Shown piece by piece: positions 7,237 to 35,118 of a stretch of 64,000 bases of DNA; the first letter of the stretch is position 1, and each line of letters starts with the position of its first letter. Position numbers and translations under genes: made by a program. The notes beneath the pieces were generated by a model, which saw nothing but the letters and a program-made list of their open reading frames with translations, made no database searches and had not been told where the DNA came from. The stretch comes from Cyanophora paradoxa CCMP329. Its lineage: Eukaryota > Plantae > Glaucophyta. The stretch covers positions 33,645 to 97,644 of the forward strand of contig QPMI01000693.1 in NCBI GenBank assembly GCA_004431415.1. The letters run 5' to 3'.

Positions 7237-7700
7237 ATGAACGCTAACACGAAAATCGCAACTCCCTGTGAGAGACTCGGTAACCTGTGCAAATTTACAC
7301 CTGAGAAACATAATTGGGGGTCATTTCTCCATTGTCTCACTCCGAATACTGACAGCGAGACTGTCATAGAGTATTTCGACCATCAGATTACGGAAAGGAT
7401 TAATGATGATTTGAAGAAAGGAAAAAAACCGACCTACGCCGAATGCATTCAGCCAAACGAAATTACCCGTGTCTATCTGGATTATGACGGCTATGTGGAT
7501 CTTAAACCGGATGTTGCCGATAACTACAAGGAAGCCGATGAATTCATCCGTGAGATGCGCAACAGACTACACGAACTCACCGGTGCTACCATTGCTGTTT
7601 CAGTGCGTCATCGTCCTGTCCATTTCGTTAAGGAAGATGTGACCCAATTTAAGGTATCGGGGCATTTCGTCTTTACCGATCTGTGCTGTCGTCATGAAGA
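7237..7700 (+). pseudogene. Truncated 5' part of primase-helicase fused to GC-rich DNA
   Basis: AEP motifs RVYLDYD and SGHFVF, then the junction at 7700. Confidence 0.85.
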
Positions 7701-12731: not shown

Positions 12732-13670
12732 AGCTTAGCCTCGCAGTAGCGTTTAGAATTTCTTGATGTGTGCAATTGCAAATGTCTGATAATCAGACTA
12801 CCCTCCCACCGCTATCGGGTACATCCGAGATTACACTAAGCAGGTAAACGGGCTGATCGGCTGGGTGAAAGAAGAGATCCCCAATACAATGCGAGACGGC
12901 GGCATGGCTGCGACGTATTTGCGCGATGTGGCACGCCGAGGCCTCGAGTCCAGGGTAGACATCCGAACGTATGAGCCGCCGGTGACACATAGAGAAAGCC
13001 CGCGTTTTACCCTCGGCTTAGTTAAATTAAATTTTGTTAATAATTTACCTATATTTCTTTTATATTTTACGATAATTTAAGTGAAATTTATCTTTATTGT
13101 TGTCTTTTATGTGTGTATTTCGTATATATTACTATTAAATTGTTACTGAAATTTTTCTTAATTGTAATTCCGATGCAATTCACTCGAATCTATCGTAATC
13201 ATTTTAATCTGAGGTGGATCTTTAACTAATCTAAATTATATCTCGCCTCAGTTTAAAACGCGGGCTTTCTCTATGTGTGATATTACGCATTATCGTGTAT
13301 AATTATATGAAAAATATGAATATGCATTTTAACTTTAAATATTTGTAAATTATGTATTAATTTATATTGATAATATGTGTGAATTTATAATGGAGTTCCA
13401 TGGAAAAATAATAAAATGTTCCGTGGGATTAAATGCGATGATAATATTAATTTGATATGGTGCGTTTTCTTACGTAAAACAGCTATAAGTCGTCAGACAA
13501 GCTGCCTCGGCTGCGCCTGTGCTGTATGGAATGTGGGGAAATATTAAATATGAACATGTTGAGATTGTATGAATGATATAATGTTTTTGTTATAGGTTCT
13601 AAGTGTAAATGGTGCATTTATTCATTTGAAGGAGACCACCACCCATTTAATTGGAAATTTAAATATTAAC

Positions 13671-14345
13671 ACTGAGTTGCATTATGTCCAATTAAACAGT
13701 TGATATAATGGGATTCTGTTTTTTACCGTTATAAAATTGTATCTGATGTGCATTATGTCCTTTTAAACAATCATTGAGATTGCTGTGTATTTTGTTGGAA
13801 TACATGATTACTGCATTATGTCCAATTAAACAATTGATAAAATGGGATTCTGTTTTTTACTGTGATAAAATTGTGTCTGATGTGCATTATGTCCAATTAA
13901 ACAATCGTTGAGATATCGGATGAAAATAATTCACTCGTTACTGCATTATGTCCGATTAAACAATTGATGGAATATCGGATGAAAATAATTCACTCGTTAC
14001 TGCATTATGTCCAATTAAACAATCGATGAAATATCGGATGAAAATAATTCACTCGTTACTGCATTATGTCGAATTAAACAATTGATGGAATATGGGATGA
14101 AAATAATTCACTCGTTACTGCATTATGTCTAATTAAACAATTGATAAAATGGGATTCTGTTTTTTACCGTTATAAAATTGTGTCTGTGGTGTATTATGTC
14201 CAATTAAACATTTGAAGAGATTGACGAGATAAAAATAATAAAAAGTGTCACTGAGTTGCATTATGTCCAATTAAACAATTGATAAAATGGGATTCTGTTT
14301 TTTACCGTTACAAAATTGTATCTGATGTGCATTTTGTCGAATTGC
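13671..14345 (+). repeat. Sub-terminal tandem array, left arm
   Basis: Copy of 1965-2637. Confidence 0.88.
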
Positions 14346-17211
14346 TTGTATTAAACTGTTTTGCTCTTCTATGTATTCGATCTTAATTTAATGTGAAGGT
14401 TACGTTAATGTTTAAAAGTTACATGGAGTTACGTGATGGGTTACGTAGAGATTTTACGATTACTAAGACCATTCTCAGTGTTAAAATGGTTGATTTATCG
14501 TTATTTTGTCACTGTGAGTTACGGTTACGCAACTTTTTGAATTCTTTCTGAAAATTTGGCTGGGGTCTTTTTATAGGTGAAGGTCTAAAACTTGCGTAAC
14601 CACGTAACTTGCGTAACCTCTACGACATTATGGTGTCATTTCTCTATTATTTAGGTTACGTAACGTTTTTACTTACGTAACTTGTGTAACCTTAACGTAA
14701 CCTTGTTATTCTTACATTTAATCATTGTTATACTATGATATCATGATAACTAAAAATGATATATGATAATTGCTTATCTTTAACCACGTAGAGATGTTAG
14801 ATGATCACAATCGAACATCTTAAAGATCTTGCATATCTCATTTTCAGGATCGGTGACATACCATAGACGGTGTCGCTTATCAAATAAAGCGCCTTGGTTT
14901 TTAATGTATTTACGTAATGATGCCTGGGTAAATATACGTTTAGCTTCTATTTCAGGTAGTTTAGTTTTAATGTCACCAACGAAATATAGACGTTTCGGGC
15001 GATTATGATAATCAGGATCGATAACAGTGGGTTTATTGTAGGAAAGTGTTTTAAGATTCTATGAAACTTGTGTGAAACAAACCAATACCCTGTGTCATCA
15101 TCGAATTTAACGCCACAATCTTTGATATCAAATATTGATCTGAAACAAGTATTACGGAGGTTGCTTATATCCAATAAGAAAGCGCCGTAGTAATGGTGCG
15201 GCTCGTTTGTGGTGTTTCCGAAATAAATGAATTGATCCATTTGTAATCAGATGTTAAAAAGATTGTCAATTTTTCATAAATCCTTCTCTGTAAAGTTTTG
15301 GTTAAACAATTGGAAAGTTGCGGTTACACAACGGTTACACGGCGGTTACACTTGGTTACGCGGGTTACAGGTGAGGTTACGTAGTGATTTTTCGATAAAC
15401 CATACCATTTTCAGTGTGGTAATCGATAAAAATAACCATTTAGATACAGGGAGGTTACGGTTACGCAACTTTTTGAATTCTTTTTAAAAAAATGGCGGGG
15501 GGTCTTTTTATAGGTGGAGGTCTAAAACTTGCGTAACCGCGTAACTTGCGTAACCTGACGAGATTTATGGTGTCTTTTTGGTATTTTTAAGGTTACGTAA
15601 CGTTTTTTCTTACGTAACCTGTGTAACCTTAACGTAACCTTATTATAACATCTAAAATTCATCTGTTATCAAACGGTAGCGGTGTGATACATTTGATCGT
15701 GTTATGAGAAGCGATAGGATCCACTTGTGAAGCGATGAAAAATGAAGCAAATCTTAAAACTTAAACAATAAGTGAGATACAGCGGAATATACAATATGAA
15801 CGCGTTCGATATCCTGACCTACATTAAGAGTATTACCATATTCCCGTTCTCATCGATGCTGAGCTATCTTTAAAGAAGGCAAACCCTAACACTATCTGTA
15901 TTGTGCCGTATGATACTAAATATCGTGCGTATTTCGAAATGTTTCGTAAAAACTCGGGATATTCACCTAATACCCGTTTCGTCTGCTTTCTCACATTAGA
16001 GACTCACTATATTCTTGTTCCGGTTCTAACTGAAACATCGTGTAAATCGTTTATCTCTAAGATCATCTCTAAATGGTCTGCTAACCTTCCTACTGAATCT
16101 AATGAAACTAAGGAGTGCGTCATATGTCTCGATGATTGTAAAAGTAAAATACAAATGTCTTGTTTGACATGTTTCGCCAAAATGTGCAACACATGCTATT
16201 TACAGTTGAAGAGATCAGAGAGCTTTAAATGTCCGATCTGTCGTAATGACATAAAGACGCAACGTGATTAATGTAAAAATTGATGGAAGATAAAAGTTTT
16301 TCCGCTCTGACATGAAAGAGAAAATGAATAATGGACATTGGGTGACTTTGGCGACATTGCATAATAAGAAGATTGAGCTTATCCATCGGGAGATTGACCT
16401 TAAACACACAAAAAGACAAGACCATGAAAGACTACAAAATGTTAAACAGTATATTGATGCAATCGATGTAATGATAGATGTAGTGAATACAATCGCTAAA
16501 ATTAAGACCATGTGAATTTCATCGATGTTTTTTATTACTTCTGTGTGCGTTTTTCAAGCTTCTGTCTCAATCTGAATGTAATAACGCTACCATCATGTCG
16601 TGCCTTCCCCCTTTGAATCGCTTTCGATATTTCCCTGGGTGTGTTCTCATCGAAATCAATGAATCGGGAAACCTTCTTTTTAAACTCTCTCTGTAAATAT
16701 CCGGGTAGTTGGTTGATATTACACCCATCGTTTTTCTTAACAAGATTCTCGTAAATAATGCTACTGCGGTCATCCTGTGATAAATCGGGATTTTGAAGCT
16801 GTTCTATGAAAGCGTCGGGAATCCGTGAAGTCATTGTAGGTTACACTGTCTATTTTGGCGGGTTGTCATTTTTTGCATCGGTTACATAGAGGTTACAAGA
16901 AGTTACAGATGAGTTACGCAACAGGCTACGTAGATATTTCACAATTGCAAGACGACTTTCAGTGTTATAATACAGGAGATTTAGTATTTTTAACACTGGC
17001 GGTTACGGTTACGCAACTTTTTGAATTCTTTTTAAAAAATGGCGGGGGGGTCTTTCTCAGATAAAATAGTGAAAACTTGCGTAACCGCGTAACTTGCGTA
17101 ACCTCTACGACATTATGGTGTCATTTCTCTATTATTTTGGGTTACGTAACGTTTTTATCTACGTAACTTGTGTAACCTTAACGTAACCTTATTATTTAAC
17201 ATTCATCTTTC

Positions 17212-17748
17212 TTATTCATTTGCATATAACTTAGGCTCTAATGCTTCCATTCCGTCAAAAAATAGCTTAGTTCTACAAACTGAACACTTAGCATTCTCAT
17301 GTGATTCAAGTGAAGAGAGGAAACACTTAGGACAAACTAGTGTATTGCAAACGATACAGCCTTTATTACTTACATTGGTGTCAATGTTTTCAAGACAGAT
17401 AGGACATGTTTCATTCGGACTCTCAAAGTTTTCCCTCGCGAATGATTTAATAATGATTTCTACAAACCATTTGGTGTTCTCGTCATCAAGATATGGGACT
17501 AACATGTAACGATGTTTATATGATAATGCAAAACGAATAGGTTGAAGGGCATGATATCCCGCCTTTTCTTTCCATGCATCAAATACCCCTTTATTCTTGC
17601 GGTTCTGTTGAATAAAGTATATAATCTGTCTTTCGTTGGCTTTCATTAAGAATTTCGTATAATTCTTATCATTCAGTTTATCTGATGCATTGACTACGGG
17701 ATATGGCGAAATCGATTCTATAAGTTTCAATATATCGTTTAAATTCAT
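17212..17748 (-). CDS. RING-finger protein 2, left arm (right-arm copy 30352-30887 frameshifted)
   Basis: Same translation as 5509-6045. Confidence 0.8.
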   Translation of the reverse strand: MNLNDILKLIESISPYPVVNASDKLNDKNYTKFLMKANERQIIYFIQQNRKNKGVFDAWKEKAGYHALQPIRFALSYKHRYMLVPYLDDENTKWFVEIIIKSFARENFESPNETCPICLENIDTNVSNKGCIVCNTLVCPKCFLSSLESHENAKCSVCRTKLFFDGMEALEPKLYANE

Positions 17749-18936
17749 TGGGTTGTGCTACTATCTGTTACAGTTTCTTTAATTAACTTAGAGTTTCTCA
17801 ATGTCGAACACTCTTTTAAGAACGCCATCAATTCTTACAGCATGTGATTTAATCCCGAAAATGCGCTTAATCACGATTCCGATGGCTGTTTTTGAAATCG
17901 GAAAGTCTATAAGCTCTTCTATTTCAGCATGGATTACATCGGAAGGTGTATAATCACCGTCATTACTTAACCTGTAACTATGCATTAAATACGCTTCCAC
18001 ATGGGACATCTCATGTTGATATTCGCCCATCTCATGTTGATATTTGCCCATCCATGTTGATATTCGCCCATCTCATGTTGATATTTGCCCATCTCATGTT
18101 GATATTCGCCCATTTCCATTTCATCCGTTACAATTTCAATGTATTCGATGCCTTCCATGTTACACTTTACTGTTACAGATTGAAAATTTTGTTACAAGTT
18201 TTACGGTTGATGTCCAAAAATTGACGCTGTAAAACACAGAAAGGTATTTAAGGGTTTGACTTAAAAGAGAAGTGAAAGGGATATTATCTAACTCTTATAT
18301 AGAGGAATAATGGCGAATACTCGGAAATCAAACCAAGAGCTTTTCGCTATTCAGAATGGGGAACCTGTCCCACCGGTTGAAAGGAATATAAAGAAGGAAA
18401 AAACAGGATTGACTGAGGAAGAACGGGAAGAAAAGGCAAGAATAAGAAGGGCAAAAGATGCGGAGAGGAAGCGTGTAAAGTATCAGGAGATGAAACAACA
18501 AAGAATCGCAAATGGTGAGAAAACAGTTAATCCACCGGAGAGATTGGAAAAGATGGCTTTGTATATTCAGCGGCGATATGCGGAGGATGAAAAATTTAGG
18601 AATAGAAGGAAAGAGATAACGCGGAACTACCAAGAACGGAAACGCCTCGAAAAGGCTTCTAAGGTAACTGAGCAAGAGACGGCAAAGAAAGGGGACGACC
18701 TCGTAAATACAATACTTGTAATCCGATGCATCATCGGAAAAAATCGTAGCGAATTGATTGGTAGGAGGTGAAAAAATGACGCTTTACTTTCTCTTTTTTA
18801 TAACCTAAGCCAAATCATTAAAGTGCCGTGGGCAACCGAAAAGCATTTAAGGACTTGCTGAGAAGATAAGGTAAAAAGGAATTCATCAATTCCTCGGATT
18901 ATTTTCTTTGAGAAAGTTAAGAACCAATCGCTGAAA

Positions 18937-21815
18937 ATGAACGCTAACACGAAAATCGCAACTCCCTGTGAGAGACTCGGTAACCTGTGCAAATTTACAC
19001 CTGAGAAACATAATTGGGGGTCATTTCTCCATTGTCTCACTCCGAATACTGACAGCGAGACTGTCATAGAGTATTTCGACCATCAGATTACGGAAAGGAT
19101 TAATGATGATTTGAAGAAAGGAAAAAACCGACCTACGCCGAATGCATTCAGCCAAACGAAATTACCCGTGTCTATCTGGATTATGACGGCTATGTGGATC
19201 TTAAACCGGATGTTGCCGATAACTACAAGGAAGCCGATGAATTCATCCGTGAGATGCGCAACAGACTACACGAACTCACCGGTGCTACCATTGCTGTTTC
19301 AGTGCGTCATCGTCCTGTCCATTTCGTTAAGGAAGATGTGACCCAATTTAAGGTATCGGGGCATTTCGTCTTTACCGATCTGTGCTGTCGTCATGAAGAC
19401 ATCCCGAAATTCTTAAATGTAATCGGACTAACGCCAAAGGTGGATTATGACCCACTCGTTTATAAGACAAGGCAGGCGCTTGTTTGTCTGGGTAGTTGCA
19501 AGGGTAAATGGTTGGATTCCCAAAACAAGACTAAACGCGATGTTGATAAGGATGTAGTATTTACCAAATTCGTGGATTGTGAAACCATGTATGACAGCGA
19601 CTTTTTCGCGCAATTCACGGATTGCCCCACTGTGCTTATCGATGAATCAAACATGTATATGTTTGATGCTAACCTAACCCAAGATGAGAAAAACGAACGG
19701 TCGGCAAAGGCGGAAGTTGCAAAAGAGCAAATGAAGGAGGAAGGCAAGACTGAAACCAAGAAGGAGACGACCAAGAAGGAGACGACCAAGAAGGAGACCA
19801 CAACAAAGAAGAAGGAGACGGCGACGACAAGCAAAAAAACAACAAAGAAAACGGAGAGTGAAGAGCAGCCGGAGGAGTCTAATAACGTTTCATTTGAGAA
19901 ACTGAGAGAAGTCGTGATGGGTCTTAGTGCTGAAAGATCGGATACATACGAAGGTTGGCTTAATGTTGGTTTCGCAATCGCGAATGTTGGAGAGGAAAAC
20001 AATATACCACCCACGAAACAGGAGGCGCTGTTTCACGAATACTCCGAGAAAAGCCCTAAGTATGATTATGATGAATGCGCGAACAAATGGATGAGTATCC
20101 GCAAAGGCAAAAAATCCGGTTCCGAAAACAAAACTATAACTTTCGGCTCACTTGTGCATTATCTGAGAGAGGATAACCCGGACACGTATTATGGACTGTT
20201 TAAACCAAGCCGACAGTTTGCATTTATCGATGAGGAGGTGTGTATGGATGAGAATGACTATTCCGATGTTAGCGCCATGAATGATAAGATGGCTCAAATC
20301 AAATTAGAAATGGATAAGACGCTATTAAGTCAAGGTCTCCCACTTCCTGTTAGCAAGATCTGTAAAGCATTAATTGGCTACAAAGTGCGGTTTTCACGTG
20401 GTCTGTGGTTGATCCTGAATGAGAAAACCGGATTTTGGAAGGTAGATAATAAGTATGATGGTGGTATGATAACTCTTATCGGTGAGGTTGTCGGGAAAGC
20501 ATACTTAGACCGGAGAACCATTGGGCTACCAAGGCGGCAAAGGCGGAGGAACAGAGCGATAAAAAGGAATTCGCAGTAAAGGCAGCCGCCTGTGCAAAAA
20601 TTGCGCAAAAACTTAACTGTGGAGGTTACACGAAAGGACTTCTTACATATCTCTCTCATGACCTTTACGATGAGACATTTGCCGATAGGTTGGATTCAGT
20701 CGCGAATGTTGTTGGCTTTGACGATGGCGTTTATGATCTTAACACGTTTGAGTTCCGTAATGGTCGTTCTTCTGATATGATGACTAAGACAGTCTGTTAT
20801 AACTATGATATTCCGGTGGATCCTGAGAAGGTCAAACGACTCAATGACTTCTACATGGATATCACAGGTGACAATGTCGAACTTGCAAGATACATTAAGG
20901 CTGTTTATGCCAAGTCTCTAACGGGTAAAAATAACATGCAGTTTTTCTATATGTTTACGGGTATCGGCTCGAACGGAAAGAGCGTAATCGAAAATTTCAT
21001 GCATAAGACATTTGGCGACTACTCACGAAATATGAGCATTGGGATTTTCACGAAGGAGGATAAAGGTAATGGAATGATTCCGGAACTTGCGAATAAGCAA
21101 GGTGTTAGGCTCGTCCATACAAACGAACCAAACACGGGTAGCAAACTGTTGTCGGGACAAATCAAGAATTTCACAGGTTGTGATGAGATCACAGTAAGAA
21201 CCCTTTTCAGAGAACCCATTTCATTCGTTCCGATGTTTGTTATCGTCATCCTCTGTAATAATAACCTCGAATTTGATCAGCCCGACAATGCAGTAGCGCG
21301 CCGCTTCCGTTCTGTTCCATTTCAGCAGGTCTATGCCGTCGAACCTAAGCCCGGACAGAAGAAAGCGGATAAAGACCTTACCGGTTGTTGAATCCCGATA
21401 ATGACGTAAATGGTGAATGGCGCAGGGCAAACATGGAGATTCTCATAGACATGCTTAAAAACCATGATGTTAATCATATAATCGACCATCCGCCAAATGC
21501 ATCCTCGAACATTCCGCTAATTATCTCGCGGACAGCGACCGTATCGGCACATTCCTAAGGGACAACTACGCTTTGGCGGAGGATAACACGAAATACATAA
21601 TATGTGACGATCTGTTTAAGGATTGCTCAAATACGATGAGAGATGTTGATAGAAGAGCAGCGATAACAGGACGAGCTGTAAGCAATAAGGTGATGGAGGT
21701 GTTTAAGATCGGCTCGACTGTAAAAAAGGTTGGTGGAAAATCGAAGCGTGTTTATCTCGGTCTCACAAAGAACCGCGCTAACGATTTTGAAGACGATGAC
21801 GAAGATGTGGAATAA
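18937..21815 (+). CDS. AEP primase-PriCT2-D5N-SF3 helicase (D5-like), ~960 aa, split by four 1-bp deletions
   Basis: DxD (YLDYD), SxH, PriCT-2 (YEGWLNVGFAI...KYDYDEC..KW...ITFGSL), D5_N (GFDDGVYDL), Walker A GIGSNGKS, LVHTNEP, ILCNN. Confidence 0.9.
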
Positions 21816-21887
21816 AACTTATTGGAAAATATACTATTGATATCTTTTTTATGATCATGAACCGTAAGACTCGGTTCTTAATAGAAG

Positions 21888-22198
21888 GTTACTTTAAGGT
21901 TACTCGGAGTTACTCGGAGTTACTCAGAGAGGTTACGTAGCGGTTCCGTTAATTTGTTACCATTTTCAGTATTGATATACCGAATTTCTCTTTATTTCAC
22001 AGCTGTGAGTTACGGTTACGCAACTTTTTGAATTCTTTCTGAAAATTTGGAGGGGGGTCTTTTTATAGGTGAAGGTCTAAAACTTGCGTAACCGCGTAAC
22101 TTGCGTAACCTCTACGACATTATGGTGTCATTTCTCTATTATTTTGGGTTACGTAACGTTTCTCCTTGCGTAACTTGTGTAACCTTAACGTAACCTTC
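21888..22198 (+). repeat. Iteron module 4, candidate replication origin directly downstream of the primase-helicase (mirror ~25902-26212)
   Basis: Same core, about 70 bp after the helicase stop. The origin function is inferred. Confidence 0.8.
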
Positions 22199-22628
22199 TT
22201 ATTAATACATAGATATCACATGTTCTCTCTTGTTATCATTTGTTGGCGTTATAGAATGTAGGTAAGACATCGGAAAAAGTGAAAAAATGACATCTTAACT
22301 ACATATAAGGTTGTTGTGATATATTCATTTGATAATTAAGATGGCTTGCAAACTCCCGAACGCATCGACATGGGTGAATATCTCATTAAAGACCTTCCGG
22401 AAGAGTTAAAACCACTTGCACGCAAGATGGACTTAAAAGGAATACGAGAATACTATGAGAGAACCTACCCTGATTTATACAAGAAAAAACAGCGTGTCGA
22501 ACCATCGGAATGCATCACTGTTAAGGTTCCAAAAGGCGTAAAGGTCAGAATTCAGAGAATCTAACACGCTGAATAATATAAAAACAATTTTAACACATGA
22601 TTAATAGAAACAAAAAGAAACATTTAAA

Positions 22629-22946
22629 ATGAAGATCTTCTACGCTATCAGAGAGCATGACGCCCTTCTTTTTTATACGCGATTCTTTGAGAATCCGGAA
22701 AACAGATGTATGGATAAATTCGAAGACTTTTGTAAAGAGTTTACCCAAATCGCTTATGGTAACACTGAAATACGAAAACCATCAAGGAAGCAAAAATTAA
22801 AAGACCTTTTTCAAAACATGCTTTTGTCATTTGATGCTGATAATAGAAATACTGAATATCATAATACAGTCACGGGATCTGTTAGGGAACGTCTCCAAGA
22901 GAAATTAGCAAAACGAAGAATATCACAATGTGTAACCTCTTGTTAA
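22629..22946 (+). CDS. Hypothetical protein, 105 aa
   Basis: Intact in both arms. Confidence 0.6.
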   Translation: MKIFYAIREHDALLFYTRFFENPENRCMDKFEDFCKEFTQIAYGNTEIRKPSRKQKLKDLFQNMLLSFDADNRNTEYHNTVTGSVRERLQEKLAKRRISQCVTSC

Positions 22947-23392
22947 ACGCACTTTAAAAAGGGTCTTTTTGCAAACCTCACAGAATCGTGTAGGTTTATG
23001 TTTCAATCTACGCAAACAGCTACAATGTCCTGTATAGGTAGTTTTGAGAGTAAAAACTTTTAACAATTTGTTAAACGCACTTTAAAAAGGGTCTTTTTTG
23101 CAAATCTCCACAGAATTGTGTAGGTTTATGTTTCGACCTACGCAACAGCTACAATGTCCGACATGTCGCAAACAGTCCACACATCCATTTATGGTCGAAT
23201 CTAATGATGCTACATATGGATTCGTCGGAAAAGAGAATTAACATAATGCTCATAGAAAAACCTTAATATACTCTCTTTTTCCGGCTTACTAAAATAACAA
23301 ATGCACTTTTGGGGAATATTCCATTTTGTATGTGGAAATATCGCGAGAATTATTTATTTAAAAGAAAACTGATATATAATGGTTAAGCTAAA

Positions 23393-24748
23393 ATGCCTGC
23401 AAGACTCACAAAAGAGATTTTTGTAGAAAGAGCGAAAGCAAAGCATGGCGACAAATACGGATTTGATAAAACCGTTTTTACCAAAGGAACCGAGAAAGTA
23501 AAAATATTCTGCTTTGAATGTAATGAATACTTTGACATTTCAGCTAAGAGTTTTTTAAATAAGAATGGACATAAGAAATGTGGAATTAAAAGAAGAGCTG
23601 ATAAAAGACGTTCAAACTTAAACGCTTTTATTACTTCTGCACAGTCCATACATGGAGATAAGTATAACTACGACAGTGTGGAATATGTTAGTAGCACAAA
23701 TGAGGTTACCATTAAGTGTCTTTCTTGCAATGAAGTTTTTTCACAGACCCCACGAGACCATTTAAGGGGACATGGTTGTAAAGAGTGTGGAAACCGAACA
23801 GCGGGAGATAAAAAAAGAAACACAAAAGAAGATTTTGTGGAAAAGGCGCGAGAAATTCATGGACTAAAATATGGATTTGATAAGGTTGTTTATACGAAAG
23901 CAAGTGAAAAGGTTAATATTTACTGCTCTGAATGTAATGAATACTTCTTAGCGACTCCCAATCATCTGATAAATGGTCGAGGTCATAAAAAATGTGGAAT
24001 ACAGAGAAGAGCCAATAAACGACGCTCTGACATTGCAACTCTTTTAGATTCCGCCCGTTCCATCCATGGTGATAAATATGATTACTCAAAGGTAAAATTT
24101 GGAACTATTGCAAAGAAAGTGATCATAACTTGTAAAAAATGCAATAGTGACTTTTCCCAAACTTTGGGTAGTCACATTGGGAGCAAAACAGGATGTCCGA
24201 AATGCGGACGCAAAACAGTGGGACTTAAAAATAGAAATTCTACACTCGAAGTTATTGAAAGGTTTAAAGAAATTCATGGTGATCTTTTCGATTATTCAAA
24301 TGTCGAATTTGTCACAATGCGAACACCTGTGAAAATAAAGTGTAATTCATGTGAATCCCTTTTCGAAAGAACACCCCACGAACACTGTCGGAGCGGTTGC
24401 CCCAAATGCAAACGTGGTATTTCAAAAGGAGAGAAAGAAGTTCAAAAAGTGTTAGACTCTTTAAAAATAGAATATTCACAACAGTTTTGTTTTAAAGATT
24501 GTCGCCATAAACAGCCTCTCAAATTTGATTTTTATATCCCTTCTTTAAGATTTGGGATTGAATATGACGGAGAACAGCATTTTTACCCAATCGAGCGGTT
24601 TAATGGAGAGGAAGGACTAAGACTGACACAGATAAGAGATGGAATAAAAAACAGATACTGTGAGACCAACAACATTAGACTTTTAAGGATACCATATACT
24701 GAAAAAGACATTAAAGGATGTATCGACAACTTCTTAAAAAACCTCTGA
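23393..24748 (+). CDS. Homing-endonuclease-like protein: five DUF723-like zinc-ribbon repeats plus C-terminal Vsr/EDxHD-type nuclease
   Basis: Five HG(D/L)x(Y/F)...CxxC...G(C/H)xxC repeats, then SKGE...FDFYIP...IEYDGEQH...RDGIKN...LLRIPY. Confidence 0.85.
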   Translation: MPARLTKEIFVERAKAKHGDKYGFDKTVFTKGTEKVKIFCFECNEYFDISAKSFLNKNGHKKCGIKRRADKRRSNLNAFITSAQSIHGDKYNYDSVEYVSSTNEVTIKCLSCNEVFSQTPRDHLRGHGCKECGNRTAGDKKRNTKEDFVEKAREIHGLKYGFDKVVYTKASEKVNIYCSECNEYFLATPNHLINGRGHKKCGIQRRANKRRSDIATLLDSARSIHGDKYDYSKVKFGTIAKKVIITCKKCNSDFSQTLGSHIGSKTGCPKCGRKTVGLKNRNSTLEVIERFKEIHGDLFDYSNVEFVTMRTPVKIKCNSCESLFERTPHEHCRSGCPKCKRGISKGEKEVQKVLDSLKIEYSQQFCFKDCRHKQPLKFDFYIPSLRFGIEYDGEQHFYPIERFNGEEGLRLTQIRDGIKNRYCETNNIRLLRIPYTEKDIKGCIDNFLKNL

Positions 24749-25150
24749 AAAAGCGATATTTCCACATACAAAATGGAATATTCCCCAAAAGTGCATTTGT
24801 TATTTTAGTAAGCCGGAAAAAGAGAGTATATTAAGGTTTTTCTATGAGCATTATGTTAATTCTCTTTTCCGACGAATCCATATGTAGCATCATTAGATTC
24901 GACCATAAATGGATGTGTGGACTGTTTGCGACATGTCGGACATTGTAGCTGTTGCGTAGGTCGAAACATAAACCTACACAATTCTGTGGAGATTTGCAAA
25001 AAAGACCCTTTTTAAAGTGCGTTTAACAAATTGTTAAAAGTTTTTACTCTCAAAACTACCTATACAGGACATTGTAGCTGTTTGCGTAGATTGAAACATA
25101 AACCTACACGATTCTGTGAGGTTTGCAAAAAGACCCTTTTTAAAGTGCGT

Positions 25151-25468
25151 TTAACAAGAGGTTACACATTGTGATATTCTTCGTTTTGCTAATTTCTCTT
25201 GGAGACGTTCCCTAACAGATCCCGTGACTGTATTATGATATTCAGTATTTCTATTATCAGCATCAAATGACAAAAGCATGTTTTGAAAAAGGTCTTTTAA
25301 TTTTTGCTTCCTTGATGGTTTTCGTATTTCAGTGTTACCATAAGCGATTTGGGTAAACTCTTTACAAAAGTCTTCGAATTTATCCATACATCTGTTTTCC
25401 GGATTCTCAAAGAATCGCGTATAAAAAAGAAGGGCGTCATGCTCTCTGATAGCGTAGAAGATCTTCAT
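25151..25468 (-). CDS. Hypothetical protein, 105 aa, right arm
   Basis: Mirror of 22629-22946. Confidence 0.6.
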   Translation of the reverse strand: MKIFYAIREHDALLFYTRFFENPENRCMDKFEDFCKEFTQIAYGNTEIRKPSRKQKLKDLFQNMLLSFDADNRNTEYHNTVTGSVRERLQEKLAKRRISQCVTSC

Positions 25469-25532
25469 TTTAAATGTTTCTTTTTGTTTCTATTAATCAT
25501 GTGTTAAAATTGTTTTTATATTATTCAGCGTG

Positions 25533-25757
25533 TTAGATTCTCTGAATTCTGACCTTTACGCCTTTTGGAACCTTAACAGTGATGCATTCCGATGGTTCGA
25601 CACGCTGTTTTTTCTTGTATAAATCAGGGTAGGTTCTCTCATAGTATTCTCGTATTCCTTTTAAGTCCATCTTGCGTGCAAGTGGTTTTAACTCTTCCGG
25701 AAGGTCTTTAATGAGATATTCACCCATGTCGATGCGTTCGGGGAGTTTGCAAGCCAT
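25533..25757 (-). CDS. Small hypothetical protein, 74 aa (left copy 22341-22564 with indel)
   Basis: MACKLPERID..., preceded by AAAAATGA. Confidence 0.55.
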   Translation of the reverse strand: MACKLPERIDMGEYLIKDLPEELKPLARKMDLKGIREYYERTYPDLYKKKQRVEPSECITVKVPKGVKVRIQRI

Positions 25758-26282
25758 CTTAATTATCAAATGAATATATCACAACAACCTTATATGTAGT
25801 TAAGATGTCATTTTTTCACTTTTTCCGATGTCTTACCTACATTCTATAACGCCAACAAATGATAACAAGAGAGAACATGTGATATCTATGTATTAATAAG
25901 AAGGTTACGTTAAGGTTACACAAGTTACGCAAGGAGAAACGTTACGTAACCCAAAATAATAGAGAAATGACACCATAATGTCGTAGAGGTTACGCAAGTT
26001 ACGCGGTTACGCAAGTTTTAGACCTTCACCTATAAAAAGACCCCCCTCCAAATTTTCAGAAAGAATTCAAAAAGTTGCGTAACCGTAACTCACAGCTGTG
26101 AAATAAAGAGAAATTCGGTATATCAATACTGAAAATGGTAACAAATTAACGGAACCGCTACGTAACCTCTCTGAGTAACTCCGAGTAACTCCGAGTAACC
26201 TTAAAGTAACCTTCTATTAAGAACCGAGTCTTACGGTTCATGATCATAAAAAAGATATCAATAGTATATTTTCCAATAAGTT

Positions 26283-29162
26283 TTATTCCACATCTTCGTC
26301 ATCGTCTTCAAAATCGTTAGCGCGGTTCTTTGTGAGACCGAGATAAACACGCTTCGATTTTCCACCAACCTTTTTTACAGTCGAGCCGATCTTAAACACC
26401 TCCATCACCTTATTGCTTACAGCTCGTCCTGTTATCGCTGCTCTTCTATCAACATCTCTCATCGTATTTGAGCAATCCTTAAACAGATCGTCACATATTA
26501 TGTATTTCGTGTTATCCTCCGCCAAAGCGTAGTTGTCCCTTAGGAATGTGCCGATACGGTCGCTGTCCGCGAGATAATTAGCGGAATGTTCGAGGATGCA
26601 TTTGGGCGGATGGTCGATTATATGATTAACATCATGGTTTTTAAGCATGTCTATGAGAATCTCCATGTTTGCCCTGCGCCATTCACCATTTACGTCATTA
26701 TCGGGATTCAACAACCCGGTAAGGTCTTTATCCGCTTTCTTCTGTCCGGGCTTAGGTTCGACGGCATAGACCTGCTGAAATGGAACAGAACGGAAGCGGC
26801 GCGCTACTGCATTGTCGGGCTGATCAAATTCGAGGTTATTATTACAGAGGATGACGATAACAAACATCGGAACGAATGAAATGGGTTCTCTGAAAAGGGT
26901 TCTTACTGTGATCTCATCACAACCTGTGAAATTCTTGATTTGTCCCGACAACAGTTTGCTACCCGTGTTTGGTTCGTTTGTATGGACGAGCCTAACACCT
27001 TGCTTATTCGCAAGTTCCGGAATCATTCCATTACCTTTATCCTCCTTCGTGAAAATCCCAATGCTCATATTTCGTGAGTAGTCGCCAAATGTCTTATGCA
27101 TGAAATTTTCGATTACGCTCTTTCCGTTCGAGCCGATACCCGTAAACATATAGAAAAACTGCATGTTATTTTTACCCGTTAGAGACTTGGCATAAACAGC
27201 CTTAATGTATCTTGCAAGTTCGACATTGTCACCTGTGATATCCATGTAGAAGTCATTGAGTCGTTTGACCTTCTCAGGATCCACCGGAATATCATAGTTA
27301 TAACAGACTGTCTTAGTCATCATATCAGAAGAACGACCATTACGGAACTCAAACGTGTTAAGATCATAAACGCCATCGTCAAAGCCAACAACATTCGCGA
27401 CTGAATCCAACCTATCGGCAAATGTCTCATCGTAAAGGTCATGAGAGAGATATGTAAGAAGTCCTTTCGTGTAACCTCCACAGTTAAGTTTTTGCGCAAT
27501 TTTTGCACAGGCGGCTGCCTTTACTGCGAATTCCTTTTTATCGCTCTGTTCCTCCGCCTTTGCCGCCTTGGTAGCCAATGGTTCTCCCGGTCTAAGTATG
27601 CTTTCCGACAACCTCACCGATAAGAGTTATCATACCACCATCATACTTATTATCTACCTTCCAAAATCCGGTTTTCTCATTCAGGATCAACCACAGACCA
27701 CGTGAAAACCGCACTTTGTAGCCAATTAATGCTTTACAGATCTTGCTAACAGGAAGTGGGAGACCTTGACTTAATAGCGTCTTATCCATTTCTAATTTGA
27801 TTTGAGCCATCTTATCATTCATGGCGCTAACATCGGAATAGTCATTCTCATCCATACACACCTCCTCATCGATAAATGCAAACTGTCGGCTTGGTTTAAA
27901 CAGTCCATAATACGTGTCCGGGTTATCCTCTCTCAGATAATGCACAAGTGAGCCGAAAGTTATAGTTTTGTTTTCGGAACCGGATTTTTTGCCTTTGCGG
28001 ATACTCATCCATTTGTTCGCGCATTCATCATAATCATACTTAGGGCTTTTCTCGGAGTATTCGTGAAACAGCGCCTCCTGTTTCGTGGGTGGTATATTGT
28101 TTTCCTCTCCAACATTCGCGATTGCGAAACCAACATTAAGCCAACCTTCGTATGTATCCGATCTTTCAGCACTAAGACCCATCACGACTTCTCTCAGTTT
28201 CTCAAATGAAACGTTATTAGACTCCTCCGGCTGCTCTTCACTCTCCGTTTTCTTTGTTGTTTTTTTGCTTGTCGTCGCCGTCTCCTTCTTCTTTGTTGTG
28301 GTCTCCTTCTTGGTCGTCTCCTTCTTGGTCGTCTCCTTCTTGGTTTCAGTCTTGCCTTCCTCCTTCATTTGCTCTTTTGCAACTTCCGCCTTTGCCGACC
28401 GTTCGTTTTTCTCATCTTGGGTTAGGTTAGCATCAAACATATACATGTTTGATTCATCGATAAGCACAGTGGGCAATCCGTGAATTGCGCGAAAAAGTCG
28501 CTGTCATACATGGTTTCACAATCCACGAATTTGGTAAATACTACATCCTTATCAACATCGCGTTTAGTCTTGTTTTGGGAATCCAACCATTTACCCTTGC
28601 AACTACCCAGACAAACAAGCGCCTGCCTTGTCTTATAAACGAGTGGGTCATAATCCACCTTTGGCGTTAGTCCGATTACATTTAAGAATTTCGGGATGTC
28701 TTCATGACGACAGCACAGATCGGTAAAGACGAAATGCCCCGATACCTTAAATTGGGTCACATCTTCCTTAACGAAATGGACAGGACGATGACGCACTGAA
28801 ACAGCAATGGTAGCACCGGTGAGTTCGTGTAGTCTGTTGCGCATCTCACGGATGAATTCATCGGCTTCCTTGTAGTTATCGGCAACATCCGGTTTAAGAT
28901 CCACATAGCCGTCATAATCCAGATAGACACGGGTAATTTCGTTTGGCTGAATGCATTCGGCGTAGGTCGGTTTTTTTCCTTTCTTCAAATCATCATTAAT
29001 CCTTTCCGTAATCTGATGGTCGAAATACTCTATGACAGTCTCGCTGTCAGTATTCGGAGTGAGACAATGGAGAAATGACCCCCAATTATGTTTCTCAGGT
29101 GTAAATTTGCACAGGTTACCGAGTCTCTCACAGGGAGTTGCGATTTTCGTGTTAGCGTTCAT
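26283..29162 (-). CDS. AEP-D5 primase-helicase, right arm, split by three 1-bp deletions at different sites
   Basis: Mirror copy. Combining both arms gives one 2883-nt ORF. Confidence 0.9.
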
Positions 29163-29340
29163 TTTCAGCGATTGGTTCTTAACTTTCTCAAAGAAAATAA
29201 TCCGAGGAATTGATGAATTCCTTTTTACCTTATCTTCTCAGCAAGTCCTTAAATGCTTTTCGGTTGCCCACGGCACTTTAATGATTTGGCTTAGGTTATA
29301 AAAAGAGAAAGTAAAGCGTCATTTTTTCACCTCCTACCAA

Positions 29341-29790
29341 TCAATTCGCTACGATTTTTTCCGATGATGCATCGGGATTACAAGTATTGTATTTACGAGG
29401 TCGTCCCCCTTTCTTTGCCGTCTCTTGCTCAGTTACCTTAGAAGCCTTTTCGAGGCGTTTCCGTTCTTGGTAGTTCCGCGTTATCTCTTTCCTTCTATTC
29501 CTAAATTTTTCATCCTCCGCATATCGCCGCTGAATATACAAAGCCATCTTTTCCAATCTCTCCGGTGGATTAACTGTTTTCTCACCATTTGCGATTCTTT
29601 GTTGTTTCATCTCCTGATACTTTACACGCTTCCTCTCCGCATCTTTTGCCCTTCTTATTCTTGCCTTTTCTTCCCGTTCTTCCTCAGTCAATCCTGTTTT
29701 TTCCTTCTTTATATTCCTTTCAACCGGTGGGACAGGTTCCCCATTCTGAATAGCGAAAAGCTCTTGGTTTGATTTCCGAGTATTCGCCAT
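29341..29790 (-). CDS. Basic coiled-coil AT-hook protein, right arm
   Basis: Intact mirror copy. Confidence 0.65.
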   Translation of the reverse strand: MANTRKSNQELFAIQNGEPVPPVERNIKKEKTGLTEEEREEKARIRRAKDAERKRVKYQEMKQQRIANGEKTVNPPERLEKMALYIQRRYAEDEKFRNRRKEITRNYQERKRLEKASKVTEQETAKKGGRPRKYNTCNPDASSEKIVAN

Positions 29791-31824
29791 TATTCCTCTA
29801 TATAAGAGTTAGATAATATCCCTTTCACTTCTCTTTTAAGTCAAACCCTTAAATACCTTTCTGTGTTTTACAGCGTCAATTTTTGGACATCAACCGTAAA
29901 ACTTGTAACAAAATTTTCAATCTGTAACAGTAAAGTGTAACATGGAAGGCATCGAATACATTGAAATTGTAACGGATGAAATGGAAATGGGCGAATATCA
30001 ACATGAGATGGGCAAATATCAACATGAGATGGGCGAATATCAACATGGGATGGGCAAATATCAACATGAGATGGGCGAATATCAACATGAGATGTCCATG
30101 TGGAAGCGTATTTAATGCATAGTTACAGGTTAAGTAATGACGGTGATTATACACCTTCCGATGTAATCCATGCTGAAATAGAAGAGCTTATAGACTTTCC
30201 GATTTCAAAAACAGCCATCGGAATCGTGATTAAGCGCATTTTCGGGATTAAATCACATGCTGTAAGAATTGATGGCGTTCTTAAAAGAGTGTTCGACATT
30301 GAGAAACTCTAAGTTAATTAAAGAAACTGTAACAGATAGTAGCACAACCCAATGAATTTAAACGATATATTGAAACTTATAGAATCGATTTCGCCATATC
30401 CCGTAGTCAATGCATCAGATAAACTGAATGATAAGAATTATACGAAATTCTTAATGAAAGCCAACGAAAGACAGATTATATACTTTATTCAACAGAACCG
30501 CAAGAATAAAGGGGTATTTGATGCATGGAAAGAAAAGGCGGGATATCATGCCCTTCAACCTATTCGTTTTGCATTATCATATAAACATCGTTACATGTTA
30601 GTCCATATCTTGATGACGAGAACACCAAATGGTTTGTAGAAATCATTATTAAATCATTCGCGAGGGAAAACTTTGAGAGTCCGAATGAAACATGTCCTAT
30701 CTGTCTTGAAAACATTGACACCAATGTAAGTAATAAAGGCTGTATCGTTTGCAATACACTAGTTTGTCCTAAGTGTTTCCTCTCTTCACTTGAATCACAT
30801 GAGAATGCTAAGTGTTCAGTTTGTAGAACTAAGCTATTTTTTGACGGAATGGAAGCATTAGAGCCTAAGTTATATGCAAATGAATAAGAAAGATGAATGT
30901 TAAATAATAAGGTTACGTTAAGGTTACACAAGTTACGTAGATAAAAACGTTACGTAACCCAAAATAATAGAGAAATGACACCATAATGTCGTAGAGGTTA
31001 CGCAAGTTACGCGGTTACGCAAGTTTTCACTATTTTATCTGAGAAAGACCCCCCGCCATTTTTTAAAAAGAATTCAAAAAGTTGCGTAACCGTAACCGCC
31101 AGTGTTAAAAATACTAAATCTCCTGTATTATAACACTGAAAGTCGTCTTGCAATTGTGAAATATCTACGTAGCCTGTTGCGTAACTCATCTGTAACTTCT
31201 TGTAACCTCTATGTAACCGATGCAAAAAATGACAACCCGCCAAAATAGACAGTGTAACCTACAATGACTTCACGGATTCCCGACGCTTTCATAGAACAGC
31301 TTCAAAATCCCGATTTATCACAGGATGACCGCAGTAGCATTATTTACGAGAATCTTGTTAAGAAAAACGATGGGTGTAATATCAACCAACTACCCGGATA
31401 TTTACAGAGAGAGTTTAAAAAGAAGGTTTCCCGATTCATTGATTTCGATGAGAACACACCCAGGGAAATATCGAAAGCGATTCAAAGGGGAAGGCACGAC
31501 ATGATGGTAGCGTTATTACATTCAGATTGAGACAGAAGCTTGAAAAACGCACACAGAAGTAATAAAAAACATCGATGAAATTCACATGGTCTTAATTTTA
31601 GCGATTGTATTCACTACATCTATCATTACATCGATTGCATCAATATACTGTTTAACATTTTGTAGTCTTTCATGGTCTTGTCTTTTTGTGTGTTTAAGGT
31701 CAATCTCCCGATGGATAAGCTCAATCTTCTTATTATGCAATGTCGCCAAAGTCACCAATGTCCATTATTCATTTTCTCTTTCATGTCAGAGCGGAAAAAC
31801 TTTTATCTTCCATCAATTTTTACA

Positions 31825-32301
31825 TTAATCACGTTGCGTCTTTATGTCATTACGACAGATCGGACATTTAAAGCTCTCTGATCTCTTCAACTGTAAATAG
31901 CATGTGTTGCACATTTTGGCGAAACATGTCAAACAAGACATTTGTATTTTACTTTTACAATCATCGAGACATATGACGCACTCCTTAGTTTCATTAGATT
32001 CAGTAGGAAGGTTAGCAGACCATTTAGAGATGATCTTAGAGATAAACGATTTACACGATGTTTCAGTTAGAACCGGAACAAGAATATAGTGAGTCTCTAA
32101 TGTGAGAAAGCAGACGAAACGGGTATTAGGTGAATATCCCGAGTTTTTACGAAACATTTCGAAATACGCACGATATTTAGTATCATACGGCACAATACAG
32201 ATAGTGTTAGGGTTTGCCTTCTTTAAAGATAGCTCAGCATCGATGAGAACGGGAATATGGGTAATACTCTTAATGTAGGTCAGGATATCGAACGCGTTCA
32301 T
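31825..32301 (-). CDS. RING-finger protein 1, right arm
   Basis: Intact mirror copy. Confidence 0.8.
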   Translation of the reverse strand: MNAFDILTYIKSITHIPVLIDAELSLKKANPNTICIVPYDTKYRAYFEMFRKNSGYSPNTRFVCFLTLETHYILVPVLTETSCKSFISKIISKWSANLPTESNETKECVICLDDCKSKIQMSCLTCFAKMCNTCYLQLKRSESFKCPICRNDIKTQRD

Positions 32302-32858
32302 ATTGTATATTCCGCTGTATCTCACTTATTGTTTAAGTTTTAAGATTTGCTTCATTTTTTCATCGCTTCACAAGTGGATCCTATCGCTTCTCATAACACG
32401 ATCAAATGTATCACACCGCTACCGTTTGATAACAGATGAATTTTAGATGTTATAATAAGGTTACGTTAAGGTTACACAGGTTACGTAAGAAAAAACGTTA
32501 CGTAACCTTAAAAATACCAAAAAGACACCATAAATCTCGTCAGGTTACGCAAGTTACGCGGTTACGCAAGTTTTAGACCTCCACCTATAAAAAGACCCCC
32601 CGCCATTTTTTTAAAAAGAATTCAAAAAGTTGCGTAACCGTAACCTCCCTGTATCTAAATGGTTATTTTTATCGATTACCACACTGAAAATGGTATGGTT
32701 TATCGAAAAATCACTACGTAACCTCACCTGTAACCCCGCGTAACCAAGTGTAACCGCCGTGTAACCGTTGTGTAACCGCAACTTTCCAATTGTTTAACCA
32801 AAACTTTACAGAGAAGGATTTATGAAAAATTGACAATCTTTTGAACATCTGATTACAA

Positions 32859-33320
32859 ATGGATCAATTCATTTATTTCGGAAACACCACAAACGAGCCG
32901 CACCATTACTACGGCGCTTTCTTATTGGATATAAGCAACCTCCGTAATACTTGTTTCAGATCAATATTTGATATCAAAGATTGTGGCGTTAAATTCGATG
33001 GTGACACAGGGTATTGGTTTGTTTCACACAAGTTTCATAGAATCTTAAAACACTTTCCTACAATAAACCCCACTGTTATCGATCCTGATTATCATAATCG
33101 CCCGAAACGTCTATATTTCGTTGGTGACATTAAAACTAAACTACCTGAAATAGAAGCTAAACGTATATTTACCCAGGCATCATTACGTAAATACATTAAA
33201 AACCAAGGCGCTTTATTTGATAAGCGACACCGTCTATGGTATGTCACCGATCCTGAAAATGAGATATGCAAGATCTTTAAGATGTTCGATTGTGATCATC
33301 TAACATCTCTACGTGGTTAA
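32859..33320 (+). CDS. DUF5710-like repeat protein, right arm
   Basis: Intact mirror copy with one D-to-G substitution. Confidence 0.6.
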   Translation: MDQFIYFGNTTNEPHHYYGAFLLDISNLRNTCFRSIFDIKDCGVKFDGDTGYWFVSHKFHRILKHFPTINPTVIDPDYHNRPKRLYFVGDIKTKLPEIEAKRIFTQASLRKYIKNQGALFDKRHRLWYVTDPENEICKIFKMFDCDHLTSLRG

Positions 33321-33756
33321 AGATAAGCAATTATCATATATCATTTTTAGTTATCATGATATCATAGTATAACAATGATTAAATGTAAGAATAACAAGGT
33401 TACGTTAAGGTTACACAAGTTACGTAAGTAAAAACGTTACGTAACCTAAATAATAGAGAAATGACACCATAATGTCGTAGAGGTTACGCAAGTTACGTGG
33501 TTACGCAAGTTTTAGACCTTCACCTATAAAAAGACCCCCAGCCAAATTTTCAGAAAGAATTCAAAAAGTTGCGTAACCGTAACTCACAGTGACAAAATAA
33601 CGATAAATCAACCATTTTAACACTGAGAATGGTCTTAGTAATCGTAAAATCTCTACGTAACCCATCACGTAACTCCATGTAACTTTTAAACATTAACGTA
33701 ACCTTCACATTAAATTAAGATCGAATACATAGAAGAGCAAAACAGTTTAATACAAG

Positions 33757-34431
33757 CAATTCGACAAAATGCACATCAGATACAATTTTGTAACGGTAAA
33801 AAACAGAATCCCATTTTATCAATTGTTTAATTGGACATAATGCAACTCAGTGACACTTTTTATTATTTTTATCTCGTCAATCTCTTCAAATGTTTAATTG
33901 GACATAATACACCACAGACACAATTTTATAACGGTAAAAAACAGAATCCCATTTTATCAATTGTTTAATTAGACATAATGCAGTAACGAGTGAATTATTT
34001 TCATCCCATATTCCATCAGTTGTTTAATTCGACATAATGCAGTAACGAGTGAATTATTTTCATCCGATATTTCATCGATTGTTTAATTGGACATAATGCA
34101 GTAACGAGTGAATTATTTTCATCCGATATTCCATCAATTGTTTAATCGGACATAATGCAGTAACGAGTGAATTATTTTCATCCGATATCTCAACGATTGT
34201 TTAATTGGACATAATGCACATCAGACACAATTTTATCACAGTAAAAAACAGAATCCCATTTTATCAATTGTTTAATTGGACATAATGCAGTAATCATGTA
34301 TTCCAACAAAATACACAGCAATCTCAATGATTGTTTAAAAGGACATAATGCACATCAGATACAATTTTATAACGGTAAAAAACAGAATCCCATTATATCA
34401 ACTGTTTAATTGGACATAATGCAACTCAGTG
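33757..34431 (-). repeat. Sub-terminal tandem array, right arm
   Basis: Reverse complement of 1965-2637. Confidence 0.88.
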
Positions 34432-35118
34432 TTAATATTTAAATTTCCAATTAAATGGGTGGTGGTCTCCTTCAAATGAATAAATGCACCATTTACACTT
34501 AGAACCTATAACAAAAACATTATATCATTCATACAATCTCAACATGTTCATATTTAATATTTCCCCACATTCCATACAGCACAGGCGCAGCCGAGGCAGC
34601 TTGTCTGACGACTTATAGCTGTTTTACGTAAGAAAACGCACCATATCAAATTAATATTATCATCGCATTTAATCCCACGGAACATTTTATTATTTTTCCA
34701 TGGAACTCCATTATAAATTCACACATATTATCAATATAAATTAATACATAATTTACAAATATTTAAAGTTAAAATGCATATTCATATTTTTCATATAATT
34801 ATACACGATAATGCGTAATATCACACATAGAGAAAGCCCGCGTTTTAAACTGAGGCGAGATATAATTTAGATTAGTTAAAGATCCACCTCAGATTAAAAT
34901 GATTACGATAGATTCGAGTGAATTGCATCGGAATTACAATTAAGAAAAATTTCAGTAACAATTTAATAGTAATATATACGAAATACACACATAAAAGACA
35001 ACAATAAAAGATAAATTTCACTTAAATTATCGTAAAATATAAAAGAAATATAGGTAAATTATTAACAAAATTTAATTTAACTAAGCCGAGGGGTAAAACG
35101 CGGGCTTTCTCTATGTGT

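Follow-up and report, generated by a model that had tools for sequence, protein, structure and literature searches.

How Polinton-like viruses (PLVs) and virophages without a protein-primed polymerase replicate their DNA is unknown; hairpin priming has only recently been proposed, for elements of Halocafeteria seosinensis, where some elements with terminal inverted repeats (TIRs) and target-site duplications (TSDs) lack core genes (10.64898/2026.07.28.741278). Integrases of the rve type produce 6-bp TSDs (PMC12220804). In endogenous mavirus-like elements (EMALEs; PMC8547959) and in the PLVs of entomopoxviruses (PMC11296320) replicase modules lie near the element ends and show links to homing nucleases, and for the latter mobile helicases linked to homing endonucleases are described (PMC11296320). 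The glaucophyte Cyanophora paradoxa is probably haploid and has a PacBio-based published assembly (PMC6704402). It is listed with 366 PLV/virophage-type capsid genes (PMC10120064, row of Table S4), and giant endogenous viral elements (GEVEs) have been reported in the species (PMC12344493). Here we describe an integrated element in a 64,000-nucleotide stretch of C. paradoxa CCMP329 (assembly GCA_004431415.1, contig QPMI01000693.1, positions 33,645 to 97,644, forward strand), called the window, in which all positions are counted from its first letter. The element (12985..35118) is almost entirely palindromic, encodes a primase-helicase, and no capsid gene was recognized in it.

The element of 22,134 bp consists of a left arm (12985..23344, + strand; 10,360 bp, 37% GC), a right arm that is an inverted copy of the left (24753..35118, - strand; 10,366 bp) and a loop of 1,408 bp (23345-24752) containing a single open reading frame (ORF) of 451 aa. 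A BLAST comparison of the element with itself aligned the arms in inverted orientation over 10,376 columns (99.74% identity); they differ by 3 mismatches and 24 gaps of one base, the gaps being located at homopolymer runs. The two arms make up 93.6% of the element. The sequence CCGGTG is found directly at both sides (12979..12984 and 35119..35124, both + strand), where the chance of any given 6-mer is 1/4096. Insertion splits a 243-codon ORF into 68 and 175 codons, which are in frame across the insertion site; the 5' part (12779..12984, + strand) was read on a duplicate of the flank (1073-1276) and the frame resumes at 35125-35652. GC content rises from 35-37% within the element to 53-59% just outside it and to 70% in host DNA close by. 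A preliminary description, made from the letters of the sequence, had reported two inverted arms of about 10.36 kb covering about 94% of the element, one gene in the loop, a clean 6-bp TSD and an interrupted ORF, and all of these were recovered.

We compared the locus with short-read contigs (k=31) from five runs (X1, X2, X6, X16 and X20); these are contigs and not spanning reads, and their depth does not equal copy number. The 20 DNA runs of one organism contain 81-85% of the sampled words; the runs may represent one strain and may include the source. One 1,468-bp contig spans 23315-24782 with 0 differences in X1, X6, X16 and X20, and so includes the loop and, at either edge, 30 bp of arm; X2 yielded a contig of equal length (1,468 bp), compared over 143 bp. 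Exact contigs of the inner arm reached 1.69-1.95x (24753-24824) and 1.94-2.22x (24886-25022) the loop depth in 4 of 4 runs, and since this is about twofold we conclude that there are two arms per loop. X1 and X16 also contain an empty site, in which the left-flank letters 12949-12978 are joined to 35119. The palindrome is thus confirmed as a real integrated element. That fold-back long reads or mis-joined repeats created it during assembly, the possibility raised in the preliminary description, is very improbable: both loop junctions lie within short-read contigs, the inner arms have twice the loop depth, and the flanks differ from each other, bear the TSD and rebuild one ORF at a site that also exists empty. 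What an artefact would account for is that the arm differences are nearly all homopolymer indels; support also comes from contigs rather than spanning reads, some runs may stem from the source strain or sample, and the duplicate described next lacks an explanation. Window positions 1-7700 are a direct duplicate of 11712-19399 (99.8%), comprising the left flank and 6.4 kb of arm and abutting GC-rich host DNA. This partial third arm copy (1277..7700, + strand) ends broken inside the primase gene and may reflect either a real tandem duplication or a misassembly. The three substitutions between the arms were rejected as proof of two physical arms; at 32843 all aligned contigs show the left-arm base.

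Each arm encodes a 960-aa primase-helicase with the architecture AEP-PriCT2-D5N-SF3 (AEP, archaeo-eukaryotic primase; SF3, superfamily 3 helicase) at 18937..21815 (+ strand), mirrored at 26283-29162 (- strand). In the assembly the two copies carry frameshifts at different spots, and the ORF is intact in each arm once the one-base gaps are reconciled between arms. Short-read contigs restore bases absent from the right arm at 27574, 27604, 28470 and elsewhere, and the frameshifts are therefore assembly errors. Profile searches detected PriCT-2, D5_N and DUF5906. When 17 C962R-type proteins are aligned with it, the AEP DxD motif and the His do not vary, and the Walker A motif reads GxGSNGKS. The protein matched AEP_C962R clusters of Nucleocytoviricota (nucleocytoplasmic large DNA viruses, NCLDVs) with scores of 0.94-0.96 and C962R of African swine fever virus (ASFV) at E 1.3e-4, while its closest relatives are at most 33% identical. 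In a tree from a quick search (59 rows) it was placed on a long branch among the C962R-type D5 proteins of NCLDVs; this tree took in 18 of 80 loci, omitted four intein-bearing proteins and matches below 150 aa, and contained no labelled PLV helicase. Assignment to the NCLDV C962R type is supported by these sequence comparisons. The AEP-D5 primase-helicase of the preliminary description is accordingly borne out by domains, catalytic motifs and relatives, and the D5 phylogeny it had proposed, against NCLDV, PLV and plasmid homologues, gave the NCLDV grouping but included no labelled helicase on the PLV side. As a single query the helicase found no match in metagenome or viral contigs. The AEP-PriCT part found no near-length match, and a search of 50% representatives gave matches in the PriCT region only (328 at E<=0.001, 4 at <=1e-10). 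None of 80 helicase loci was accompanied by further arm genes, and none showed an inverted repeat of at least 100 bp. A predicted structure of the AEP part was unusable (pLDDT, predicted local distance difference test, 33.8).

Searches of Pfam, PHROGs and NCBIfam gave no family match for a capsid, PolB, A32 ATPase, rve integrase, tyrosine recombinase or transposase, in line with what had been read from the sequence before. The sole capsid-named match, to a phage major capsid protein (MCP) model, was weak, scoring 14.7 bits (E 0.013) where the cutoff is 75, and it covers residues 192-335 of the primase piece, where a K/T-rich linker and PriCT-2 are located. Besides the primase no ATG-started arm ORF is longer than 178 aa, and the longest other stop-to-stop stretch has 190 aa. 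Unannotated arm ORFs have at most 153 aa, and no ORF of at least 300 aa is present besides the primase and the loop endonuclease. Judged by profile libraries and ORF size, the arms leave no room for a capsid, ATPase, PolB or integrase gene. Integration of this element, which has a 6-bp TSD and no integrase gene of its own, must have depended on an enzyme that it does not itself encode, as had been proposed.

With Polintons/Mavericks the element thus shares TIRs and a 6-bp TSD; protein-primed PolB and rve integrase are missing. With PLVs and virophages it shares a primase-helicase replicase (AEP-PriCT2-D5); a double jelly-roll MCP, a minor capsid protein and an A32 ATPase were not found by profiles or ORF size, nor was an integrase of its own, either rve or tyrosine recombinase. 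Like transpovirons it is capsid-less and has few genes, and its helicase is of the SF3/D5 type instead of superfamily 1 (SF1). A GEVE of NCLDV origin would contain several core genes in a large region; here a D5-like gene only is found within 22 kb with sharp ends. No solo terminal unit with its own TSD, such as a miniature inverted-repeat transposable element (MITE) or composite transposon would predict, was found in the 64-kb window; 6 of 6 matches belong to the arms.

A terminal fold-back unit of 294 bp (12985..13278, mirrored at ~34823-35118) lies at each end of the element; in it the 25-bp terminus recurs as a perfect inverted copy on the far side of an AT-rich spacer. The unit is predicted from its sequence to form an end hairpin; the folding z-score of -7.3, obtained for the duplicate copy (1277-1575), is due mostly to the 25-bp stem. 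Each arm further contains four related iteron-like modules of ~300-370 bp at 14395..14717, 15318..15651, 16835..17202 and 21884..22210, in which GTTAC repeats face GTAAC repeats around an AT-rich core; the fourth starts 68 bp past the stop codon of the primase. All 43 GTTACG/CGTAAC hexamers of the arm are located inside these modules, where 4.5 are expected and 100 shuffles gave at most 12. By analogy with the origin iterons of P4/D5-type replicons, the modules are predicted to serve as origin or primase-binding site. Neither the terminus nor the iteron patterns had a match in IMG/VR or metagenome contigs. In the short-read contigs, joints from 32628 to 31242 and from 26146 to 26001 represent family variants rearranged at iteron modules, which suggests that gene cassettes are shuffled via recombination between them. 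A subterminal repeat array (13678..14343) includes 4.5 copies of a 59-bp repeat at 13883-14150. In the other arm these repeats (33574-34469) show divergent loose ends and, at 34022-34469, a summed depth of 110-185x that of the loop, a figure inflated by multi-mapping; they may be common to other elements, which would be candidate helper PLVs. The non-coding inner arm end (22940..23344) has two ~90-bp direct repeats 128 bp apart. We rejected it as a degenerate TIR (best E 0.04).

The loop gene (23393..24748, + strand) encodes a 451-aa homing-type endonuclease with CxxC repeats and a nuclease-like C-terminal domain, matching phrog_559 (E 2e-106), phrog_681 and phrog_9084. In IMG/VR 598 related stretches were found, and identity ranged from 30 to 43% among the 78 loci kept. 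One of these 78 has an inverted repeat of at least 100 bp (281 bp, 76%) and none has other arm genes. The letters GCGA are present at both loop edges (23342-23346 and 24753-24756), which weakly suggests insertion of the endonuclease into the symmetry axis of a perfect palindrome, with only 2 bases beyond the inverted repeat backing it.

Short-read contigs also reveal relatives of the element in the same genome. Primase contigs reach 4.9-10.2x and outer-arm genes 4.5-6.8x the loop depth, with a GC bias that varies by run. For the 105-aa ORF of the arm, which is AT-matched, its own and two variant arm types add up to 8.7-10.4x loop depth. A variant contig at 1.7-2.0x links sequence resembling an end of the endonuclease (24640-24666) with the inner end of the arm (24748-24777), and a second short endonuclease match is found at ~1x, or at 1.4-2x on another fit. 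The diverged relatives thus comprise ~9-10 arm units and ~4 endonuclease units. About two arms per endonuclease follow from ~9 arms and ~4 endonucleases, a ratio expected if the relatives are palindromic too. A small family of ~4 palindromic elements would suit the depth data, the pairing of variant arm and endonuclease being inferred. Among 24 of 36 listed loose ends at the inner arm end, none exceeds 255 nt.

We consider it plausible, and judge the case for and against to be about balanced, that the element is a capsid-less, self-replicating fold-back satellite of PLV or virophage descent that was inserted by an integrase acting in trans. One strand would fold into a 10.4-kb duplex closed by the 1.4-kb loop; since one strand can form such a closed duplex, the integrated form would be a head-to-head dimer of one functional unit. 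The AEP-SF3 protein would load at the GTTAC/GTAAC modules, prime and unwind, while a polymerase of the host or a helper virus would carry out elongation and the terminal units would act as hairpin ends. An rve-type integrase of a resident PLV or virophage would then join the ends of the opened dimer to new sites, giving rise to the 6-bp TSD. The architecture may have arisen once, by copy-back or by an arm replacement in which the capsid/integrase half was lost, and may later have spread as a family of ~4 elements, with the endonuclease as an exchangeable central passenger. PLV descent is likelier than an independent class of plasmid, because gene kit (D5 primase-helicase, RING and HNH-type nuclease), terminal palindromes and 6-bp TSD match virophages and PLVs of H. 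seosinensis and the host has 366 capsid genes. We read the element as an unusual variant within the PLV/virophage mobilome: the capsid-less primase-helicase element of the preliminary description stands, while the free linear plasmid, the giant-virus association and the class apart from PLVs that it proposed stay hypothetical.

Several observations speak against this satellite reading. The argument for PLV descent draws on gene kit and ends and not on phylogeny, because the helicase groups with the NCLDV C962R type on a long branch in a tree without a labelled PLV helicase. A free form, a helper and a terminus shared with a capsid-bearing PLV remain inferences. The ratio of variant arm 1 to variant endonuclease is 2.5-2.8 and not 2, endonucleases below 85% identity or other centre genes would escape detection, and an identical joint would be expected from relatives in which a capsid module follows the endonuclease. 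No relative was seen whole, and the TSD was seen at one locus only. Finally, depth near the terminus (34470-34917) lies above that of the next gene region (32230-33125), by ~1.3-2.6x in 4 of 4 runs, although overlapping contigs inflate this value; relatives with short ordinary TIRs could produce such a pattern instead.

The last observation would also fit a possible but doubtful explanation, in which a capsid-encoding PLV or virophage still present in the genome gave rise to a one-off copy-back (arm replacement) derivative: its replication half would have been copied as an inverted duplicate that took the place of the capsid/integrase half, and the parent's integrase would have inserted the product a single time. 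In the relatives a variant endonuclease lies next to the inner arm end, as it would in a parent that continues into more genes. PLV replication genes are often located near one end (10.64898/2026.07.28.741278), and TIRs of 7-8.6 kb are occasionally found in PLVs (PMC12220804, Table S3, with columns inferred from the layout). Such a single event agrees poorly with the arm units (8.7-10.4x), which are about twice the detected endonuclease units (~4x), and with the lack of a kilobase loose end among 24 of the 36 listed. Furthermore, a 10.4-kb arm without integrase or virion gene would be an odd half for a PLV of 15-30 kb.

Alternatively, the element could be a linear plasmid that resembles transpovirons, belongs to a giant virus and has no relation to PLVs; with a primase-helicase derived from an NCLDV, it would replicate in viral factories and integrate by chance via a foreign integrase. 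The C962R type of the primase is what one would expect from such an origin, as are the GEVEs reported in the species (PMC12344493) and the lack of a capsid and the small number of genes, both known from transpovirons (PMC3671162). We regard it as unlikely: an SF1 helicase, a Zn-ribbon protein and a transposase DNA-binding subunit were not recognized in profile searches, the 6-bp TSD is clean and implies that the ends are adapted to an integrase of the rve type, and neither the unmatched terminus and iteron motif in IMG/VR and metagenome contigs nor the 80 helicase loci (0 with further arm genes, 0 with inverted repeats of at least 100 bp) point to viral relatives of this kind. Some DDE transposases generate 6-bp TSDs as well, and each end of the element is a unit with 25-bp inverted repeats at its borders. 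Two MITE-like units of 294 bp, with these repeats as their TIRs, could have mobilized the enclosed DNA as a composite transposon via a host DDE transposase. This would leave the fully inverted interior unexplained, and the terminal-unit matches in the window lie in the arms (6 of 6) with no solo unit bearing its own TSD, so that we give it hardly any weight.

The remaining arm genes are small ORFs of 67-178 aa, read with one-base gaps reconciled between the arms. From the outer end inwards, a 153-aa ORF with a DUF5710-like stretch (14780..15240, - strand; E 1.6e-5, below the curated cutoff) is intact at 32859-33320 (+) and 3075-3536 (-), and no homologue was found by sequence search. Two RING-finger proteins of 158 aa (15796..16271, +; E 1.7e-5) and 178 aa (17212..17748, -; E 5.8e-4) are paralogues (30% identity, E 1e-15). 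Between them lie a 67-aa ORF without assigned family (16312..16515, +) and a 99-aa ORF without a family in profile searches (16535..16834, -). The 123-aa ORF that follows (17788..18158, -) has an N-terminus of 21-bp repeats and a C-terminus resembling DUF3874/Pox_D5 (feature scores 0.91-0.92). We note it as a lead only, a candidate stand-alone origin-binding domain; a BLASTP comparison with the C-terminus of the element's own primase gave no match. A basic, charged 149-aa ORF (18310..18757, +), which had no family in profile searches, contains a GRPRK motif that we take to be an AT-hook. Beyond the primase follow a 74-aa ORF without assigned family (22341..22564, +) and the 105-aa ORF (22629..22946, +), for which profile searches found no family.

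The DNA interrupted by the insertion (~11900-12984 and 35119-36630) is itself high-copy, with one contig at 14-52x loop depth, and contains a YqaJ exonuclease (12077..12733, - strand; E 5.9e-29; intact copy at 366-1022), the split 243-aa ORF and a 238-aa ORF (35690..36406, + strand). The 238-aa protein belongs to a cluster of 8, of which 7 are EukProt proteins named Cyanophora paradoxa, in agreement with the host; of 20 exact look-ups 19 gave no match. Both right-hand ORFs stop directly before GGGGGTACAG, and contigs join alternative sequence at 35687 and 36406-36407. From its sequence this target element reads as a cassette-like variable gene array. Near its left edge (11915-12075) two similar hairpin-like modules of the form GTGTCC-spacer-GACAC are present. 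Further downstream, a ~480-bp direct repeat (36743-37215 and 37735-38221; 94%) follows a long (TA)n tract, and 44909-49081 (+) contains an intact ORF2 of a long interspersed nuclear element (LINE), 1390 aa, with endonuclease and reverse transcriptase.

A near-perfect palindrome of 10 kb, interrupted by a spacer of 1.4 kb, thus persists in a eukaryotic chromosome. With its primase-helicase, iteron-like modules and terminal fold-backs, this intact, culturable and nearly all-palindromic element renders the hairpin-priming model testable. If the relatives share its plan, a hidden layer of satellites of satellites escapes capsid-anchored surveys; if it is a one-off, it would still be a rare case of a PLV genome captured in copy-back form. 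More tentatively, and with the chances rather against it, the element could represent a new class of capsid-less and integrase-less fold-back replicons, which would propagate as giant palindromes, with a hairpin duplex of 10 kb being opened to give the dimer that integrates, and which would use their own NCLDV-type primase-helicase and iteron origins while parasitizing PLV integrases. Surveys anchored on capsid genes and with a capped TIR length could then not detect such elements. The filter of one PLV survey, TIRs of <=8 kb and inserts of >=6 kb, would exclude the Cyanophora element (PMC12220804).

In the literature we found no description of such an architecture, most subscription papers and bioRxiv supplements lying outside the coverage. 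Virophages and PLVs of H. seosinensis resemble it in TIRs with terminal palindromes beside the TSD, in non-pPolB (protein-primed PolB) replicases and in the occurrence of D5 primase-helicase, RING and HNH genes, but carry genes of their own for capsid, ATPase and integrase, and their TIRs average 485-808 bp (10.64898/2026.07.28.741278). In the Cyanophora element the TIRs measure 10.4 kb and contain every gene except one, and capsid and integrase are absent. Cryptophyte PLVs with an AEP-S3H (S3H, superfamily 3 helicase) replicase are likewise ~22 kb long, of low GC in their host and flanked by the rve-typical 6-bp TSD; they are defined by their MCP and have median TIRs of ~320-620 bp, at most 8.4-8.6 kb, with inserts of at least 5 kb (PMC12220804). 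The end modules of PLVs, in which a primase-helicase beside inverted repeats has been proposed as origin, are similar too, except that a tyrosine recombinase and morphogenesis genes are kept (PMC11296320). Transpovirons share the lack of a capsid, a set of 6-8 genes with one helicase, and helper dependence, but have an SF1 helicase and Sputnik-related genes and are free linear plasmids of mimiviruses (PMC3671162). In contrast, the Cyanophora element has an AEP-SF3 protein and a whole-unit inverted duplication, and is integrated with a TSD. ASFV C962R and the D5-like primase-helicases of NCLDVs have the same AEP-PriCT2-D5N-SF3 architecture and catalytic motifs, whereas the protein described here is at most 33% identical, sits on a long branch and is encoded by a 22-kb element and not by a giant-virus genome. 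The head-to-head replicative dimers of parvoviruses and poxviruses, as well as snap-back defective genomes, are palindromic dimers with extended terminal hairpin sequences. Compared with these, the Cyanophora element has different enzymes, a 1.4-kb gene-bearing spacer and a stable integration with a TSD.

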